Origin: Eledone cirrhosa
Lineage: Eukaryota
Reading direction: 5' to 3'
Length of the DNA: 64,000 bases
Assembly: GCA_964016885.1 (NCBI GenBank)
Contig: OZ024748.1
Coordinates: 46,934,001-46,998,000, forward strand
This document shows positions 1 to 54,120 of this stretch, piece after piece. Below the pieces are notes generated by a model, which was given only the letters and a program-made list of their open reading frames with translations, was not told where the DNA came from and did not search any database. Within the stretch, counting starts at the first letter, position 1. Each line of letters starts with the position of its first letter. The translations under genes and the position numbers were made by a program.

Positions 1-1520
1 CAAGAAACAATTGGACCTCATTACACAATTTTCAACCGACATCAAAATGAAATTTGGTGAGTCCAAGTGTACATATTTGGCAGTAAAACGTGGAAGAGCT
101 GTGCCCTCCTCTAGAAATCTAGAGATGAACGGCCTGACATTACAACCGCTTCAGTCAGGTGACAACTACAGATATCTTGGACAGGATGAGAATGTCAGAT
201 ATGATGGACCCATAAATAAGGAGAGAACCAGAACTGAATACCTCAGAAGAGTAAAGAAAATATGGTCATCAGAGCTGTCAGCATACAACAAATACATTGC
301 CCACAATACTTATGCTGTGCCAATTCTAACGCCAACATTTGGCCTACTGAACTGGTCATTGCAAGAACTAAGTGAGATGGATGTTAGAACTCGAAAACTT
401 CTCAGTGTTACTGGGAACTTTAACATCAATGGTGATGTGGATAGGCTATACTTCTCACGCAAGGAAGGTGGCCGGGGTCTAAAATCAATATTAACAACAT
501 ATGAGACCCGGATAGTAACACTGAAGCAACACCTTCAACAGAGGAAAAAGGTTGGCAACCATCTTGCCCAGGTTTATGAGCATGAAAAAAGAAATATCAT
601 TAGAATAGCGACTGATCTGGAGGAGAGATATGGAATAAAGCCTGATATAAATCTCTCACCCAGAGAAATCGGAAGATCCTATTCAATGTTCAAACAAGAT
701 TAAAAAATTGACCAATTTACAGAAAAAGTTGTGCATGGATACTTGAGGCGTAAAATACAGACCATAGAGGGGATAAACCACTCAAAAAGCCTGGCATGGA
801 GTTCCGACAAGTTTATGACATCACACCTTGAGGGATATCTCTATGCAATACAGGAACAAGAACTCCCTACCAAATGTAAAACAAAGATCGAGGATGTAAG
901 CCACATTGTTGCCAGCTGCGAAAGAATGTCATCTCGCTACTACCTCCCCATGAGACACGATGGGATAGCTAGAACCATCTGGAACGCACTTCGGAAAACA
1001 AAATTAACAACAAACGAAGAAGAATATATTGAGACAGATGGCACTAAGGAATACTGGTGGAACCTGAAAATAAAAACTGCCACCAAATTAAAGCACAACC
1101 GGCCTGATATTGTAGTTTGGGACCACAGATTGAAAATGTGTTCTGTTGTGGAGATCAGCTGCCCACTTGATGTAAACGTTGTCAGAAAAATACAGGAGAA
1201 GGAGGACATCTACGGACCATTGATGAGGAGTTTACAAATCCAGTATCCAAGATACACCTTTAGCTTCATACCCATCATTATTGGTGCTACGGGTTATATA
1301 CCAACCCGCTTGGACCAAAGTATGACTGAACTTGGATTTGCGGACAAAAAGCGCAGCTCCCTAATTCATAGTCTACAAATGGCTGCGATAGCTGGCACCT
1401 TCAAAATTTGCAAAACATTCTTGCGATTCAAGGGATGACAATTTCTTTTCGTTTGCAACCTTGCCACCAGGAAAATGGCCGGTCAAAAAAATATACTCGA
1501 AATTAAGAGAAAGAGAAAAC
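1..1520 (+). mobile_element. RLE-type non-LTR retrotransposon (R4/Dong-like), 3' part: RT C-terminus, zinc-knuckle remnant, restriction-like endonuclease, 3' UTR; disrupted
   Basis: ORFs 11-703 and 731-1438 share a frame, split by TAA at 701-703. Motifs: KFGESKC, YRYLG, DVDRLYFSRKEGGRGL, HG-YL, QEQEL, EDVSHIVASC, RHD, HNRPDIVVWD, EISCP, PIIIGATG. CxxC of the knuckle appears deleted. Ends in (TACA)n/(TA)n. Confidence 0.88.
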
Positions 1521-2122: not shown

Positions 2123-4363
2123 ATGTTTCCACGGTGGTTATATAGCCTAGGTATGCGTGTACGGTGTGTACGATGGAATGCTTTCCTTTTCGATAAGGGA
2201 CACGCCAGTCACTCGTCTGAATCATATGGTTTTAAATCATGTAAAAACCTACCCACAAATCCTCATCAGGATGCTTTCAAATTAGACTTAATGAATATGA
2301 CCATGAATATTACATTTCCCAAACATAGAAGTAATGTGCTGAAGAGCAACATGGAAGCACTACTCCGAACACTGCAAAATACCAATGGGATTGTTGTGAA
2401 ATCTGATAAGACCTCTAACGTGTATACCATGGATATCGATAAATACAAGAGCTTCATACGCAACCAACTACATAAGAAATAGAGAAAAACAAGGGAAACT
2501 ACACTAACGTACATTAACAACGAAGCATACAAAGTAGTGAAGAATCTCAAGATAGACGATAGAACAGAGCCGATTATACCCGCAACCCCCACCTTTAACC
2601 CGAAGGACAATAAGGTAAACTTTGACTCTAACCCTAAGATTAGACTTATATGCCCTTCGAAATCAAACATAGGAAAGATTAGCAAACATATACTTGACAG
2701 GGTAATAACTCAATTGAAAAAGAAAATAGAAATTAAACTATGGGGCAACACTTGCGAAGCAATTCGCTGGTTTAATAACGTTAAGAACAAGAATTAGTCT
2801 AAGTTTATACAATTTGACAGACGAATACTACTTTTCTCACCCAGCACTTTAAGTAAGGCCCTATTGTTTGCCAAAGTCAATTCCGACCTAACGGAGGACG
2901 AAATTAATATTATTCTAGAGGCTAGAAAAACTATTATCAAGTGTGATAACTGCTACTGGAAACGTAAGGGCAGACCCACAAACTTCGACATCACCATGGG
3001 CTCCAACGACTCGGCCGGAGGTCACCGATCTCGTGGGAATTTACATAGCCCACATACTACATGGAACATTTAGTAATCTAGAGGGGAGGGGGGAATATAT
3101 AGAGATGACGCGCTTTTATTAGTTAATAACTTAAATAACCAAAATCTTGAAAGGCTACGGAAAAACATTATAAAATCTTTTAGTGAACTGGGTCTAAAAA
3201 TAACGTACGAATACAATCTTAAAGTGGTAAATATTCTAGACGCAACTGTTAATTTAAATACCGGATTGATACGACCATTCCACAAGATAAATGAGAACCT
3301 TACCTATATCAATTTTAACTCAAACCACCCACTTTCCATGATCAAATCGGTTCCCCGTATTATTTATCTCAGAATCTCTCGCCTATCGTCTAACTCTGAG
3401 ATTTTCAGTGAACATGCTGAATACTATAATAACTAATTAAGGAATGCCGACCACCGGGATAAAATAGAATACATTGATAAGAATCTCAATAACACACATA
3501 GCCCTACACGAAATCAAAGAATACGTAACAGGGGTACAGAAATACAAGCGCACACACGCAGTACCACCAGACATACTAATAATAGAAAAGCATCACCAAA
3601 TAAATCACGTTGTAGAAAGTATATATGGTATAATCCCATTTTTAATGCTTCGATTAATGCAAAACTATCTATTTCATTATTTAAGTCAATTAACAAGCAT
3701 TTCCCTAATTCCCATAAATACAGTAAAATTCTAAACTCTAAGACTATTAAGCTATCATACTCCACTGCACCAAACCTTGAAGAATACATTAAAAAAACTT
3801 AACTTAAAGCAATTAAACAACACTACAAAACAAAATATTTTAATAACAGATGAGCATAACCTAGTATCGGCCTCCTAACCACTAAATGGGCGACGGGTAT
3901 TACACAACCCACCTGAACCTGCTACCCACAATAAAATCTATAACTGCCACCTACCTGAAAGATGTCCATTGAAGAATTAATGCCTAAAATCCAACATTGT
4001 TTATCAATGCATTGTCGAATCGAACGACCAGAAATGGTATTACATCGGGTCTACCACCACCTCCTTTAAATCTCGCTGGTATCGTCATCGATTCTCAATT
4101 AAACATCCTAATCACCGTTTTATGACCACGCTCGCCAATAAGACCTGGCAACTCCGTGACGCAACCAACAGGCCACCTTGAAATGGCATATACTTTCCAG
4201 CGCTAGTGCATATCGGAGTAGATTGAAGTACTGCAGGTTATGTAACCTTGAACTCTTTTACATCTTAAAATCCAAAAATAAATTACTAAATGACAGAATC
4301 GAACGATCATTATACTGAAACCATAAACTGAAGGCTAAATTCTCTCACTATAAAATAACTTAA
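2123..4363 (+). pseudogene. Decayed Penelope-like element ORF (RT + GIY-YIG), resembling the Hydra-type PLE clade
   Basis: Fragments across stops and frameshifts: YGFKS, KSDKTSNVY, NPKIRLICPSKSNIGKISK, FDITMGSNDSA, GIYRDDAL (~3090-3115), ILDATVNL, YINFNSNHP, IWYNP, IKLSYS, (Y)NCHLPERCPL (CxCx5C-like, 3939-3971), IVYQC..WYYIGST..FKSRWYRH, CRLCNLE..LLN. Confidence 0.88.
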
Positions 4364-4924
4364 CATTCGAACACGAGACTATAACATTGCTTTCTCGCTA
4401 ACTATTTTCTCTCAATAACAACTAGTTAACTATATTCCCCACCCCCACACTACAAGACAATACCCTGCTTATCATTATAAATGGATACTTAAGTGCGGTT
4501 TGTAGCCTACAACGATGAACTCGATGAACACCCATCCCATACCTTTCGTCTGTCCCCTCTCTATCTCTATTTCCTCCTCTCTCCCTTCCCCTCTCTTTCT
4601 CTCTATTTCTCTCTCTCCCTCGGTCCACCTCCCTCCCTCTCCACATCTATGACCCTGCCCTATGTGGCAATAAATAATTCCAACCTTAACTATCAACACA
4701 TAGCCTAAGGTTGTCGCTTTGAGAGTAATCAGTATAAAAGCCCTACCACAACATCTTGATTAAGATATCTGTATTCTTCAAACCACTCTCTCCCATTCCT
4801 CCAACCCCTGCATCTCTCTCTCTCCCCTTCTTTCTCTCTTCCTTTTATACTGTATCTTCCCCAATAACTTCCTTTAAGGGTATTTACATTTTAACCATTC
4901 AGGTTATGTAATTTTGTGTATTCT

Positions 4925-5034
<110 letters not shown>

Positions 5035-5234
5035 AAAAAGTATATAGGAGATCGATTGTGGAGAAGATGTCGTTAATCATAGAAAAGAACTGTTGTCCAT
5101 TTGGTATCCTACTAGTTAATTTATCAGTCTTATTAATGACTCCACCAGTTTCGCCGCCTTTTGTACTTTATACTGTACTTCATTGTTTCCCTTGTAATCC
5201 GCTTACTTCATGTTGTACTTTATTTCTTAACTCA

Positions 5235-5412
5235 TAATTGTTTCTACTTTAGGCACAAGGGCAGCAATTATCCAGTGCATTACTGGTACTTTATTTTATC
5301 GACCCCGTAAGGATGAAAGGCAAAGTCAACCTCGGCGGGATTTGAACTCAGATCGTAAAGGGACGTAACTATGCTGCAAAGCATGACGTCTGACCCTCTA
5401 CCGATACTGCCA
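5235..5412 (-). mobile_element. Nin/Deu-type SINE copy (a more diverged SINE follows at ~5565-5720)
   Basis: Near-identical to 1875-2058. Confidence 0.88.
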
Positions 5413-7019
5413 CTCATAATGTACGTACGACAGAGTAGTTTATAAAGTAACTTGTAATTTAACTTCACAGTATAATCCCTTAGTGGTATATAGGATTTCT
5501 CGGACCTTTTAAGCCTAGCAGAGCTCATCACTCCCAAAATCTGAACACATATAGAGTCAGAATATAACTCAGTACTAGGCTGATCCTTTTTTTATATCGA
5601 TTTCGTATTAATGAAAGGCTACGTTGACCTCGACGGGATTTATACCCATAAAACAGAGCGCTCAGAGAAATAGCACAAAGCTTTGTATCCGACGTTTTAA
5701 CGACTCTGCCACGTCACCACACTATCCTACTTTATATTAAACAATATGTCCTACTTTATATTGTACTACATCGTCTACTCTGTAATTACAGGATTGATAG
5801 ACTCATCTTTAGCGACATGGTGCTATAAGAAATGTAACATGGTCGCAGGTGTGCGTGCAGATTTCTGTGTCTTTTCGCTGGGACCGAACCCCGGTCTTAC
5901 TTGTCCTCTTATTTGTTCATATATAAACTACTTCATATTGCTATCCTTATTGTCATTTATATCGTACATTATACTGCACCATATTTTGTATCTGTTCTAA
6001 TTTCATTTCTACAGATATAATAATGTGTATTGTACAATATGATCTAATGTGTATTGTTCTTTATATTATATTATAGTTTATATAATTCGTTACATTTTAC
6101 TTCATTCTACAATACAAATTGTTTCTTTTGAATTATATTTACTATATAATTGTATTGTATATTATAAATTGTATTCTATAGCGTAGACTACATTATATAT
6201 CATACTACTTTATATATCAGACCTCCTTATGTATTAGACTACTTTATGTATTTGAATACTTCATATGTTAAACTACCTTATGTATTAGACTACATTATAT
6301 ATCATACAACTTTATATCTTATACTACCATATATCTTATACTACCTTATATATTATACTACTTTATAAATTATGATACTTTATGTGTAGTTTATGTTCCA
6401 TCTTCTATTCAACTTTATATTGTAAATTATATTCGACTATATTCTACTTTATATATTGACAATGAAGGAAATCGTAAATATATTTCAAAAGAAACCGGAA
6501 CAACATCCACAACAACATCACAGTAGCAACAACAACAACAGCGATAACAACAACAAAATCAAAACATGCCTGTTCATCGTAATTTTTTTTTTTCCATATA
6601 ATATAAATTGACTTTGAGATAAATTTCGAAGACAGAAAAACAAACTAACACAAACAAAACATTAGAAGACAAAACAAATACAAAACAATATAAACACAAT
6701 ATAAAACAAGACAACATTATTTTTTTGGCGTCGTTTGAACATCGATTATAAGATTCTTTGAATCCTTCACTAAAATGCCCGAAAGCTGTCGTCTCGATTT
6801 CGTAAATGTCACTTCCTTTTTCCTTTTCACTTTCTTTTTATTATTATCATTATTCTTATTATTACTACTATTATTATTATTATCATCATTTTCTATCCAA
6901 TTCTCTTTCAGCTACAATAACTAAACATTTTTCAAACTAGTCTTAGAAATACTGAGATTGCCATCGTCTGAATTGCAATTCCATTAAATATGCAAACGTT
7001 AAGAGGAGAATTGTTTAGA

Positions 7020-9199: not shown

Positions 9200-9205
<6 letters not shown>
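8840..9205 (+). mobile_element. Fold-back element family B: 151-bp arms, 1-nt loop, tail on the right
   Basis: Arms 8840-8990 and 8992-9142 differ only in a T/A run. Flanked by (TA)n on both sides. Confidence 0.85.
9030..9065 (+). ncRNA. Minimal hammerhead-like motif, U3-A8 variant core (mirror copy on minus strand in left arm)
   Basis: CTT-TTGAAAA-GCAG AAGAA CTGC-GAA-ACCGGT-A-AAG. Palindromic stem III, GUA triplet, stem I only 3 bp. Confidence 0.55.
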
Positions 9206-9230
<25 letters not shown>

Positions 9231-9559: not shown

Positions 9560-9885
9560 TTATTGTATAATCTTGTTAGACGTATTTCGTTAATGTGATT
9601 ACATAATATCCGTTTGACGTGTTCTCATCAGACAGGTGATAAGTTGTAATAGTGTTTTGTTTTTTATATGCTACGGTAGTTAGGTTAGGATCGTGGTGGT
9701 AGTAGTCCAGGACAGAAGGTACGCATCCCTACTCTAGTGGACTACTACCACCACGCTCCTAACTACAGTAGCATATAAAATATTAACCATCACAACGTTG
9801 CACCTGTCCGATGAGAACACGTCAAAGTGTTATTATGTAATCACTTTGAGGTCTTCGAAATACGTATAACAGGAATATAAAATAC
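9560..9885 (+). mobile_element. Diverged fold-back element family D with hammerhead at 9803-9873
   Basis: Arms ~9560-9709 and ~9738-9884. Right arm CCTGT-CCGATGA-long stem II (TCAAAGTG/CACTTTGA)-GAA-ATACGTAT-A-ACAGG. Left arm keeps CTGATGA on the minus strand. Confidence 0.7.
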
Positions 9886-10013: not shown

Positions 10014-10051
<38 letters not shown>

Positions 10052-13935: not shown

Positions 13936-14780
13936 TGAGTACATGTGTGAGTGTGCGCCTGTGTGTGCACATATGTGAGCAAAAGACCACACGTTTTATG
14001 TGTCTGTTCGTATTTCCATGTAGACGCACATAGGCTTATGTGAGAAAGTATACGTCTACGTACTATTACGTATAAGCGCGTTGTTGAGTGTGTGTATGTT
14101 TATGTTCTGGATATTTATTTATATATTTGTTTTCCCCTAAATCCTTTTTGCCCGTTTTTTCAGCCTCACTTTCATATTTCCTAAATTTTGTTTTCAAATC
14201 CATATTTAATAAAAACACCATGTTATCCCATTCATTCTGTCGACTGAAGACAGATATAAATATCTGCCTTCAAGAAACCACTGGTAAATGAAATAATTAT
14301 CTTATGTTGTTTATTACATAACTATATATATATAGTAGCCAACAGATAAGAGATTGACCATTTTCAAAACGATATATCGGCTTTCTTTGTTTATATCGAT
14401 TAAGGTATTTTAATATTGAGATGTTGATGCAAAGGGTATAAAAGTAGTTTTATTTCGAATTGATATAGTGATTATACCAAACTACCTGGTAATTATGTCC
14501 AAAGAAATATTTAAAATAAACACTATATAATCGATATAATGTGACACAATCGATTTATTGAAAATGCTATTAGAATTATTTAAGTTGTAATGTTCAACAT
14601 AAATTGTTTCCTAAAATTATGGTTTGTTTATTTACCTCTAGTATATGTCTAGAAGTTATAAAATAGTGGACAAAACAAAATCAAAATAGCGGAAATAAGA
14701 AATAAAAACGCTACAATTGAAATAAAAAAATAAAAAAAATACAAACGATAGTAAAATACGAAAACAGAAATTGTTAGAAA

Positions 14781-31275: not shown

Positions 31276-31351
<76 letters not shown>

Positions 31352-52007: not shown

Positions 52008-53044
52008 AGTATGTATACGTACATACATATATCTATACAGACGTACAGTAGTATGTGTATATATATATACATACATGCACACATATATATATGTACGTAT
52101 GGATTTACCAAACATTTATTATAATGCTCGGTTTGTTTGTAAAACATCCCGAATTAAGCCGTACAGTGTTTAGCAACCATCGTTGCCCTTTTGTTCAACA
52201 CTGAGAAAGGAACGATGTACTAGTTTCAAGCTTATTAGCTATCGTCAGCACCGTATACCTTTCTGCCTGATGATTGAACGTCTGAAAGTATATACTTTCC
52301 TTATGCATATTAACGGCTGAGCAGCCTAATTTGCATATCGAATGAGTTAATCGGCCGGGCGCACCGGAAACGATAAATGGAAAAAATGAAACGAAATTTC
52401 ATTTCTCACTCTTAATACGGCAGTTACTTAAATATAAGTATGTATACGTACATAAATATATGTATACAGACGTACAGTAGTATGTATATATATACATACA
52501 TGCACACACACACACATATATATATATATGTACGTATGGATTTACCGAACATTTAATATAATGCTCCGTTTGTTTGTAAACAAACATCCCGAATTAAGCC
52601 GTACAGTGTCGGACGATTAACTCACTCGATATGCAAATTAGGCTGCTCAGCCGTTAATATGCATAAGGAAAGTATATACTTTCAGACGTTCAATCATCAG
52701 GCAGGAAGGTATACGGTGCTGACGATAGCTAATAAGCTTGAAACTAGTACATCGTTCCTTTCTCAGTGTTGAACAAAAGGGCAACCATGGTTGCTAAACA
52801 CTGTACGGCTTAATTAGGGCTGGTTGTTTACAAACAGACCGAGCATTATAATAAATGTTCGGTAAATCCATACGTACATATATATATGTGTGAATGTATG
52901 TATATATATATACATACTACTGTACGTCTGTATACATATACATACTACTGTACGTATGTATACATATATGTATTTACGCATACATAGTTATATATAAGTA
53001 ACAGCCGTACTAAGAGTGAGAAATGAAATTTCGTTTCATTTTTT

Positions 53045-53047
<3 letters not shown>
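52008..53047. mobile_element. Family F: ~430-bp unit, ~1.5 tandem copies on minus strand joined head-to-head to one plus-strand copy
   Basis: 52009.. repeats at 52438... 52611-53047 is the reverse complement of the unit. Hammerheads at 52213-52253 (-) and 52714-52754 (+). Confidence 0.82.
52714..52754 (+). ncRNA. Minimal type I hammerhead ribozyme (family F)
   Basis: CGGTG-CTGACGA-TAGCT AATA AGCTT-GAA-ACTAGT-A-CATCG. Palindromic stem III, GUA triplet. Confidence 0.78.
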
Positions 53048-53112
<65 letters not shown>

Positions 53113-53115
<3 letters not shown>

Positions 53116-53659
53116 AAAGTTTTATTTAAGATTGTTGGGTTACAACGAGTAAATATTTTATAACTGATATAAAAGCACTCAACAGTTTCTGGAGTAGGTT
53201 TACGATATTAAACAAATGGAAACTATATTTACAAAACCATATTTATTTCGTTATATATATTTCTGGGATATCATATTAAAAATATGTTATGCCTTCCTCA
53301 GACAAAATACAATACATAAGCTGTTTTATAAATAATTAGTGACATACCTTGTAATAATGCAACTTCCTTTTAAAAAGTTGATTTACTACCAAATCAACTT
53401 TTTAAAAGGAAGTTGCATTATTACAATGTATGTCACTAATTATTTATAAAACAGCTTATGTATTGTATTTTGTCTGAGGAAGGCATAACATATTTTTAAT
53501 ATGATATCCCAGAAATATATATAACGAAATAAATATGGTTTTATAAATATAGTTTCCATTTGTTTAATATCGTAAACCTACTCCAGAAACTGTTGAGTGC
53601 TTTTATATCAGTTATAAAATATTTACTCGTTGTAACCCAACAATCTTAAATAAAACTTT

Positions 53660-53662
<3 letters not shown>
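53113..53662. mobile_element. Fold-back element family G: 272-bp arms, 6-nt loop, in pure (TA)n
   Basis: Arms 53113-53384 and 53391-53662 with ~2 mismatches. Confidence 0.9.
53466..53531 (+). ncRNA. Type I hammerhead ribozyme (family G)
   Basis: TATTTTGT-CTGAGGA-extended stem II (CATAT/ATATG)-GAA-ATATATAT-A-ACGAAATA. Confidence 0.7.
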
Positions 53663-53706
<44 letters not shown>

Positions 53707-53709
53707 ATA

Positions 53710-53811
53710 AAACAAAGAGGGTATGGCAAGATACCAGGTGGACCATAACGAACAAGAATACTCAAAACGTAGGGTAGTAGAGTTTGTAATAGGAAGAGTC
53801 AGGACTCTTTT

Positions 53812-53815
<4 letters not shown>
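53710..53815 (-). mobile_element. Family C-related tail with miniature fold-back
   Basis: Tail similar to 33832-33935. Ends ATAGGAAGAGTC-AG-GACTCTTTTCCTAT. Confidence 0.65.
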
Positions 53816-53898
<83 letters not shown>

Positions 53899-54120
53899 AG
53901 AAGTTCTATTTAAATTGTTGGGATACAACAGGCAAATATTTTTATATCTGATATAAAGCACTCAACAAATTATTGGAGTAAAAATACGAAATATTAACAA
54001 ACGAAACTATATTTATAAAACCATATTTATTTCATTATACATATTTCAAGGACACCAAGTTAAATTATGGTGTGCTTTCATCAGATAAAATATAATATAG
54101 AGCACTTTTATAAATAAATA
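53899..54120 (-). mobile_element. Diverged single-arm family G copy with hammerhead at 54028-54092
   Basis: Minus strand TATTTTAT-CTGATGA-AAGCACACCA..TGGTGTCCTT-GAA-ATATGTAT-A-ATGAAATA. Confidence 0.75.

Follow-up and report, generated by a model that had tools for sequence, protein, structure and literature searches.

A hammerhead-bearing palindrome of Eledone cirrhosa read as two head-to-head ends of a Penelope-like retrotransposon

What produces a 550-bp near-perfect palindrome with hammerhead-like motifs inside a simple TA repeat? We asked this of positions 53113-53662 in a 64,000-nucleotide stretch of Eledone cirrhosa DNA (GenBank assembly GCA_964016885.1, contig OZ024748.1, positions 46,934,001 to 46,998,000 of the forward strand; this whole stretch is called the window here). 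An earlier note, made from the sequence alone, had described two 272-bp arms around a 6-nt loop in pure (TA)n without a tail, and a diverged sibling showing hammerhead-type covariation; it had missed that the arms are the 3′ ends of a Penelope-like retrotransposon (PLE). The reading we favour, with a probability of roughly 0.85, is that the palindrome consists of a 272-base and a 278-base 5′-truncated 3′ end of a young, high-copy PLE of the Hydra clade, inserted head to head in (TA)n, likely in one event, and that each carries a hammerhead motif predicted to self-cleave, probably only as a dimer. The evidence carrying this reading can be read directly: the identity of the arms to the 3′ untranslated region (UTR) of the element, the motifs of its open reading frame (ORF), the (TA)n target, the heavy 5′ truncation of the copies, and the prevalence and orientation of head-to-head pairs.

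The arms and the element behind them

The arms are present as described, flanked on both sides by (TA)n. With (TA)n excluded, 53113-53384 and 53391-53662 are each 272 bp long and differ at two positions (53232 C vs T; 53348 C vs A) around the centre ACTACC. A repeat search with (TA)n included returned complementary arms at 53072-53384 and 53391-53703 (313 nt, 99%, spacing 6 nt). As single-stranded DNA, the 550 nt fold into a single hairpin of -296.1 kcal/mol, compared to -42.0 ± 4.3 in 100 shuffles. The 6-nt loop did not stand as a separate sequence. Numbering the element from its 3′ end, ACTACC is the reverse complement of element bases 273-278, and GGTAGT lies directly past base 272 in 23 of the 26 other displayed loci that read further. 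Because the canonical element continues with GGTAGT past base 272, the apparent loop belongs to the right copy; it is element bases 278-273, so the right arm has 278 bases and directly abuts the 272-base left arm. The locus is thus made up as follows, where A is the terminal start site of the reverse transcriptase (RT), at element base 1.

53045..53112 (68 nt), no strand: left target microsatellite (TA)n, read directly
53113..53384, minus strand: left arm, element bases 1-272 from the 3′ end, a 5′-truncated PLE 3′ UTR; identity of 97.8% to the final 273 bases of the copy at L067:3983-7702
53113..53200, minus strand: element bases 1-88 of the left copy, its 88-base "tail", extending to site A; partner arms of other pairs end near base 89
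53244..53309, minus strand: left-arm hammerhead motif, mirror of 53466-53531; covariance-model match 53235-53315 (-), 95.5 bits
53385..53662, plus strand: right arm, element bases 278-1, its first six bases ACTACC (53385-53390) being the apparent loop; its BLAST alignment to the full-length copy covers 282..1
53575..53662, plus strand: 88-base "tail" of the right copy, which makes the pair A-A; it runs through AATATCG into TAAACC...CTTTTGC
53663..53703 (41 nt), no strand: right target microsatellite (TA)n, read directly

Copies of the arm were sought in the 3.0-Gb genome from which the window comes, and only the best candidates were scored. The arm proved to be highly repeated, with 2091 first-look candidates and 95-100% identity in the 40 that were scored. 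In the 27 other displayed loci of this young family, the start GCAAAAG directly followed an AT dinucleotide in 25 and TA-rich sequence lay just upstream in 26; likewise, outer ends adjoined TA-rich repeat at about 30 of the 32 ends in a 16-pair sample of the family. One end of the copies is fixed and the other varies, giving lengths of 264 to 3720 bases, which implies 5′ truncation of a retroelement. The sense strand is the reverse of the left arm and terminates at its 3′ end in ...CTTTTGC(AT)n. At L067:3983-7702 lies a natural full-length copy of 3720 bp, with a 3′ UTR of about 1.44 kb; identity between the arms and the end of this 3′ UTR is 97.5-97.8%. This copy is preceded by the 3′ end of another one, in the tandem form known as a pseudo-long terminal repeat (pseudo-LTR); tandem copies also occur in a second locus (L033). 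A reading of the repeat as a 1.3-kb non-coding unit was dropped, since longer copies reach an ORF.

The ORF of the L067 copy (4024-6264) has 747 codons and one stop. It contains RWR (in IRRIRWRAF), SDKTNN, LDIANYY, YRDD, VNFLDVTF and SNHP, followed in its C-terminal part by the linker CNCRDRSKC (CxCX5C), a GIY-YIG core (IIYNCNV..NYVGSTSTEFKLRYNNHKN), CDLC..E and N..CRH. The CCHH motif is absent, as a single Cys lies between the linker and CDLC. These motifs fall in conserved columns of an alignment with 18 database relatives. In total, 429 database proteins match the ORF at E ≤ 0.001, the best of them 39-45% identical, and two of the seven top-scoring rows are hypothetical octopod proteins. 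By the definition of Craig et al. (2021; PMC8557442), the Hydra clade has DKT instead of DKG, RWK, the CxCX5C linker, no CCHH, and CxxC and CxH motifs flanking conserved E and N residues; the same account describes (TA)n insertion as near-universal in the clade, hammerheads as readily detected and elements as generally <3 kb, and its supplement includes a cephalopod member, Hydra-1_Obim of Octopus bimaculoides. Here RT precedes GIY-YIG in one ORF, DKT stands for DKG, CxCX5C, CxxC and CxH are present without CCHH, RWR is a conservative variant of RWK, and the insertions lie in (TA)n. By these motifs and the 39-45% identical relatives, we assign the element to the Hydra-clade PLEs. Other results speak against the assignment. 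Pieces of the ORF matched no family in Pfam, where the sole match among these pieces and the relatives was a weak one of a single relative to RVT_1 (E 9e-6). A search of PDB sequences with a profile of 20 aligned sequences returned no match, and at 3720 bp the element is longer than is general in the clade, the excess being 3′ UTR.

A poly-C tract between RT and endonuclease (for example at about L031:2085-2100, minus strand) measured 5 to 17 bases in 40 occurrences, drawn from loci of which some overlap. RT and endonuclease share a frame in 13 of these 40, and the variation may stem from slippage in the element or from homopolymer error in the assembly. Within the window, positions 3096-3330 weakly match the RT-coding part of the element (68% identity) and probably represent the remnant of an old PLE. 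Sequencing runs labelled as other organisms also contain pieces nearly identical to the arm, including a 142-base contig with a single differing letter; the family may be common to close relatives, or these runs may come from the same species under another label.

The continuation of the arm into the RT/GIY-YIG ORF decides against a fold-back DNA transposon of the type of miniature inverted-repeat transposable elements (MITEs). Such an element, with long terminal inverted repeats and a TA target, would suit the perfect inverted arms, the TA-rich surroundings and sub-threshold matches to hairpin models of MITE-derived plant microRNAs. However, the majority of copies consist of one arm that has a fixed end and varies in length, and the continuity with the ORF refutes this explanation, to which we attach almost no credence. 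A microRNA hairpin was rejected as well: at E up to 10, Rfam gave only noise and long-hairpin microRNA models below threshold, whose scores reach at most about half of the gathering thresholds, and the inverted copies account for the hairpin.

Each arm of the palindrome has one private difference from the family majority, and with one base per arm off that majority the insertion is young. The recent insertion that the earlier note had drawn from the survival of so long a palindrome is therefore retained, but not the idea of a special structure in need of explanation, since the form is the standard PLE insertion and is present in very large numbers. The palindrome is an ordinary insertion product of an already known class of retrotransposon.

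Head-to-head insertion and the pairing of ends

We examined the layout of insertions in 29 mapped loci of the young family and 29 loci of family E, both chosen through an A end. A head-to-head partner was found in the BLAST rows of 19 of the 29 young-family loci; beyond those, one locus has a partner arm of 10 bases ending at the second start site (B, at about base 89), and one was partnered by reading the junction sequence. Orientation was counted by hand in the first 100 genomic places listed for the young-type motif. These contained 27 diverging (-,+) pairs within 6.9 kb and no converging (+,-) pair, as well as two tandem pairs with a spacing of 3.71 kb. Thus, head-to-head pairs of truncated copies are the normal insertion form of the element family.

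Inner ends of long-end and short-end arms alike cluster at element bases 261-279, where they account for 11 of 32 arms (in a sample biased to short pairs) and 6 of the 29 mapped loci. The arm lengths of the palindrome, 272 and 278, both fall inside this hot spot. The hot spot (53373-53391 in the window) lies just upstream of a small hairpin in the sense RNA, CAACUU...AAGUUG, and could be an RT stop or mark where a short RNA begins.

A short-RNA 5′ end would also be expected if the arms were copies of a small non-autonomous hammerhead element of about 279 bases, resembling a retrozyme or a short interspersed element, instead of truncated autonomous PLEs. An origin from PLE pseudo-LTRs has been proposed for animal retrozymes (bioRxiv 10.64898/2026.07.22.740005). 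Against such an origin, the arms match the 3′ UTR end of the full-length element at 97.5-97.8% identity, copy lengths are continuous from 182 to 3720 bases, and a tandem array of a 279-base unit was not seen. We consider a non-autonomous unit improbable to a high degree.

The layout agrees with that described for PLE insertions, which are heavily 5′-truncated, often have an inverted 5′-truncated copy at the 5′ end, carry a "tail" at one end only and are biased to (TA)n (PMC8557442). As a family, the element displays 5′ truncation, tandem pseudo-LTR copies, inverted partners and a one-end tail. The palindrome locus shares the truncation and the inverted partner; its tail, however, is at both ends. 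The earlier remark that the palindrome has no tail is correct for poly(A) but not in the PLE sense, given the 88-base terminal "tail" on both arms.

A likely course of events is suggested by biochemistry of the PAc PLE protein (Frangieh et al. 2024, PMC11167929), which is described as a predicted dimer that cuts and extends both target strands and begins reverse transcription at two internal sites whose spacing defines the tail. By analogy, both cut strands of the self-complementary (TA)n target would prime cDNA synthesis in one insertion, one cDNA beginning at site A and the other at site B. The two cDNAs would extend to a similar point, in the hot spot at bases 261-279, and their 3′ ends would then be joined to give the head-to-head pair. 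Human L1 offers a partial parallel in twin priming, reportedly described by Ostertag and Kazazian in 2001, in which a second priming on the opposite target strand is said to leave an inverted 5′ segment joined to a 3′ segment. In L1, in contrast, the inverted part copies upstream RNA and no palindrome results, whereas here both cDNAs would copy the same 3′ region; moreover, the second start here lies at a fixed internal site and that of L1 at chance microhomology.

The 88 bases between sites A and B are the "tail" of the family. Site B reads ...AATATCG, followed in most loci by TA repeats; all 8 displayed partner arms turn TA-rich there, 6 of them into pure (TA)n. Of the 29 young-family loci, 11 hold 13 partner arms that end at B and a further one has the 10-base B arm; in family E, 19 partner arms at 14 of the 29 loci likewise end at B. 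In samples taken blind to the ends, all 16 pairs of the young family and all 7 pairs of older lineages were A-B. By contrast, the palindrome in the window is A-A, both arms reaching base 1, and no other A-A pair or any B-B pair was found among more than 50 head-to-head pairs checked. Insertion in one event predicts A-B ends, and the A-A locus is not fully explained by it.

This exception, together with the read data, counts against the locus as we describe it. Logan contigs of four runs on 52960-53810 are 54-142 bases long, and none joins the centre to a flank; loose contig ends at 53385 show canonical element and not the junction, as is expected for a collapsed high-copy repeat. The assembly is the only source for the structure of the locus. 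The symmetric palindrome could accordingly be an assembly or sequencing artefact, made by a fold-back chimeric read or by collapse of two copies, the more so as palindromes and (TA)n are hard to assemble and this is the only A-A pair seen. However, the unique flanks on the two sides differ and do not mirror each other, unlike those of fold-back chimeras. In addition, the arms show two base differences and unequal lengths (272 vs 278), the (TA)n tracts measure 68 and 41, and dozens of comparable head-to-head pairs across chromosomes match the published layout. We therefore hold an artefact to be very improbable indeed.

An ordinary A-B pair could also have become symmetric later, if (TA)n broke beside the short end and folded back onto the long arm, so that the tail and some (TA)n were copied. 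Under this explanation, the A-B ends of every other pair examined would mean that the enzyme disfavours an A-A product, and rejoining would be eased by the self-complementary (TA)n. It would also suit the identity of the two 88-base tails (bases 1-88), both arm mismatches lying within bases 89-272, but the difference between 0 mismatches in 88 tail bases and 2 in 184 elsewhere is not significant (about 1 expected). Moreover, the unique flanks are not duplicated, which leaves no repair footprint, and the account of start-site use by PAc (PMC11167929) describes no difference between strands, so double priming at A is possible. We regard the later origin of the symmetry as doubtful. The private mismatches, one per arm, fit arms copied from one RNA and arms copied from two RNAs alike.

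Provided that the locus is real, we propose tentatively that either the PLE enzyme started both cDNAs at the terminal site, as a rare event, or a broken TA microsatellite beside the palindrome was repaired by fold-back. A double start at the terminal site, if true, argues against two starts fixed on one RNA. A real A-A locus would thus be a natural test case for how such inversions and palindromes form in animal genomes. More broadly, thousands of young insertions with two sharp RT start sites 88 bases apart and a truncation hot spot bear on the mechanism, and a strict long-end/short-end rule with at least one exception is useful natural data on the unsolved pathway of PLE integration.

The hammerhead motif at the locus and in its family

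Each arm of the PLE pair contains a motif that we read as a type I hammerhead. Its parts on the right arm, read from the sequence except for the cleavage site, are as follows.

53466..53531, plus strand: type I hammerhead motif; covariance-model match 53460-53540, 95.5 bits, with covariation counts as given below
53466-53473 with 53524-53531, plus strand: stem I, 8 bp
53474-53480, plus strand: core CUGAGGA
53481-53511, plus strand: helix II, 31 nt
53512-53515, plus strand: GAAA
to 53522, plus strand: helix III, formed by A-U, U-A and the loop AUAU
53523, plus strand: A17; predicted cleavage between 53523 and 53524, from the fold

The earlier note had placed cleavage after A53523, which is the correct position for the proposed fold. 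It had also reported a diverged sibling about 240 bp away, and this copy is found 239 bp from the right arm, with its own target tract.

53814..53900, no strand: second tract, (TA)n(TG)n, target of the sibling, read directly
53901..54120, minus strand: sibling, a solo 5′-truncated copy belonging to an older, related PLE family, about 224 bases long from site A; identity to the arm 80%
54028..54092, minus strand: sibling hammerhead motif with a CUGAUGA core and A-U at 10.1/11.1; covariance-model match 54019-54098 (-), 102.3 bits

Over 225 aligned bases, the sibling is 80.0% identical to the arm, and its family gave 435 first-look candidates, of which the 40 scored were 93-97% identical. The A-B rule also governs the pairs of this older family. 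In the arms, stem I is TATTTTGT/ACGAAATA and the core CTGAGGA; in the sibling, they are TATTTTAT/ATGAAATA and CTGATGA, as the earlier note had quoted. The sibling has the better helix II, closed by an A-U pair, and its minimum free energy (MFE) fold contains helices I and II.

Support for the motif was assessed in two alignments, one of 11 lineage representatives, which was not fitted to a model, and one of 30 distinct sequences, a positional sample of one chromosome plus the window. The 11 lineages had 95.5% of cells paired and 6 of 20 pairs changed on both sides, compared to 36-56% pairing in slid controls. In the 30 distinct sequences, 94.4% of cells were paired (slid controls, 35-63%) and 10 of 20 pairs were compensatory (7 of 10 in helix II and 3 of 8 in helix I), although this alignment was fitted to the covariance model, which favours pairing. 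Core positions C3-A9 and G12-A14 were invariant in 28-30 of the 30 sequences, A15.1-U16.1 was kept in 29 of 29, and the non-G position 17 was A in all 30. In stem I, the second pair counted from the core covaries.

These alignments bear out several points raised earlier from the arms and the sibling. The change of G-C to A-T(U) in stem I is real and has a G.U intermediate in another lineage, position N7 takes all four bases in the 30 sequences (U19/A5/C4/G2), and helix II, described as differing in sequence yet still paired, keeps its pairing through compensatory changes. Covariation thus extends to the wider family. The hammerhead reading holds at the family level, at which self-cleavage is predicted from sequence, and the motif belongs to the RNA biology of the element and not to the dead stub at the palindrome.

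Motifs were counted in the genome by IUPAC pattern, with the reversed pattern as control. The form with U before GAAA occurred at 31,350 places and the A variant of the palindrome at 1,255, whereas the control gave 0. Within the window, the bare core CTGANGA-N18-40-GAAA occurred 10 times (1.29 expected from shuffles). Six of these ten matches lie at 14244, 16593, 26219, 43266, 48395 and 50779.

An older head-to-head pair lies at 9585-9631 (-) and 9795-9882 (+) of the window, with arms that are 84% complementary and (TA)n at about 9205-9230 and about 10019-10050. Its copy at 9795-9882 has a long helix II that is unrelated in sequence but of the same architecture, with G-C at 10.1/11.1, and it shares the C.C mismatch at the fourth position of helix II. 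In one copy of this pair, the core is changed to CCGAUGA.

Helix III is palindromic (AUAUAUAU), with 2 bp and a 4-nt loop, and is compatible with an extended helix III in a dimer.

Just 3′ of the hammerhead, element bases of about 100-131 (53532-53563 in the window) form a block, AAUAUGGUU, in which the 11 aligned lineage representatives show little or no variation. The sequence that continues it, UUAUAAAUA, is found again in the displayed copies. Word depth in the runs compared is highest in the region of the block, which is situated shortly before start site B on the sense strand and may be a protein-binding or start-site signal.

A number of results argue against a ribozyme or limit the case for one. 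In the window, Rfam gave no family of any kind, hammerheads included, at its gathering score, and searches of 1401 and of 101 bases with E up to 10 gave no hammerhead either. The usual G10.1-C11.1 pair is replaced by A-U in 28 of the 30 distinct sequences, among which G-C occurs at 10.1/11.1 only in the distant copy at 9795-9882. The helix II of the palindrome family is the weakest of the lineages seen, with 3 mismatches in 14 including A.A at 10.1/11.1, so that the earlier claim of the clearest structural conservation in the window is not supported: the family of the palindrome has the poorest helix II, and conservation is cleanest in older lineages. The MFE fold of the arm is not compatible with a hammerhead and pairs core bases, and fold energies are unremarkable (z of -0.7 to -2.5). 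Helix III is invariant and so gives no covariation evidence. No copy had its 5′ end at the predicted cleavage site, in samples (arms of at least 190 bases, or small samples) that could hardly show one. At the palindrome itself, a read-through RNA would form a 272-bp duplex burying the ribozyme, in a stub with neither promoter nor ORF, and the duplex makes ribozyme action at this locus unlikely.

Several of these points would be accommodated if the motif were a conserved hairpin plus 3′ UTR sequence required by the RT, with its boxes kept for a reason other than catalysis. The flanking block (AAUAAAUAUGGUU...) shows the same invariance as the core, Rfam gives no match, the energetics are weak, and A.A at 10.1/11.1 together with two more helix II mismatches is tolerated in a family that numbers at least 1,255 copies. 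Published accounts add that PAc hammerhead mutants still insert in vitro (PMC11167929) and that PLE hammerheads cleave poorly or need protein, minimal ones cleaving poorly in vitro (PMC4209133, PMC11167929). Even so, N7 alone varies within an otherwise fixed box, A15.1-U16.1 and the non-G position 17 are kept, and stem I covaries. The distant lineage at 9795-9882 keeps the architecture with a different helix II sequence, and hammerheads are reported as universal in the Hydra clade (PMC8557442). We thus judge a non-catalytic role unlikely, and prefer a hammerhead that is predicted to cleave. For ribozyme biology, at least 1,255 near-identical copies of an active family, whose hammerhead is decaying, have lost the 10.1/11.1 pair and two further helix II pairs, a loss that fits the dispensability of hammerhead cleavage for PLE insertion in vitro.

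Relation to known elements and neighbouring sequence

The element resembles described Hydra-clade PLEs such as Hydra-1_Obim (PMC8557442) in its single ORF with a divergent RT followed by GIY-YIG, its (TA)n target, its hammerhead near the 3′ end and its truncated, tandem and inverted copies. It differs in its size of 3.7 kb, with a 3′ UTR of about 1.44 kb, where the clade is generally <3 kb. The Hydra rows in File S2 of Craig et al. have hammerheads at a similar distance from the 3′ end and a palindromic helix III; their helix II has 4-7 bp, compared to 10-14 bp with a conserved C.C mismatch here, and helix III here differs in having 2 bp and a 4-nt loop. In 4 of the 9 Hydra rows displayed from that file, U follows the core and U precedes GAAA in place of the G-C closing pair of helix II. 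The insertions share with the described PLE architecture (PMC8557442, PMC11167929) the inverted truncated copy abutting the 5′ end, the extension at one end, two RT starts and an AT-rich target, but the tail has 88 bases here vs 30-40, and the palindrome locus alone among the pairs examined has both ends tailed.

The minimal and type I hammerheads described from metazoan PLE pseudo-LTRs (Cervera and de la Pena 2014, PMC4209133) have the same type I topology, a large helix II and a very short helix III with a palindromic loop. The palindromic helix III suggests dimeric action in both cases, and both comprise many families with compensatory changes within a genome. In contrast to the conserved G10.1-C11.1 and 4-5 bp helix I of those hammerheads, we found A-U (A.A in the palindrome family) and a helix I of 8 bp, and cleavage here is predicted. 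Metazoan non-LTR retrozymes, as portrayed by Cervera and de la Pena (2020, PMC7229834) and in the preprint of Li, Clavereau and Pollet (2026), are likewise non-coding hammerhead repeats related to PLE termini. They are, however, short tandem units that give circular RNAs, whereas the arms here are inverted, truncated ends of an autonomous element.

For genome annotation, hammerhead-bearing (TA)n palindromes should be masked as PLE insertion stubs and not recorded as ribozyme genes, microRNA hairpins or unstable structural elements. The motif class occurs at more than 32,000 places in the 3.0-Gb genome.

Directly to the left of the palindrome lies a nested inverted repeat, with 216-nt arms at 52142-52357 and 52610-52825 that are 97% complementary, and a further pair at 52373-52504 and 52921-53052. 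It contains a CTGATGA...TGAAA string, with no match in Rfam. This inverted repeat is made of a different high-copy repeat, with 1457 first-look candidates and scored copies that are 96-98% identical.

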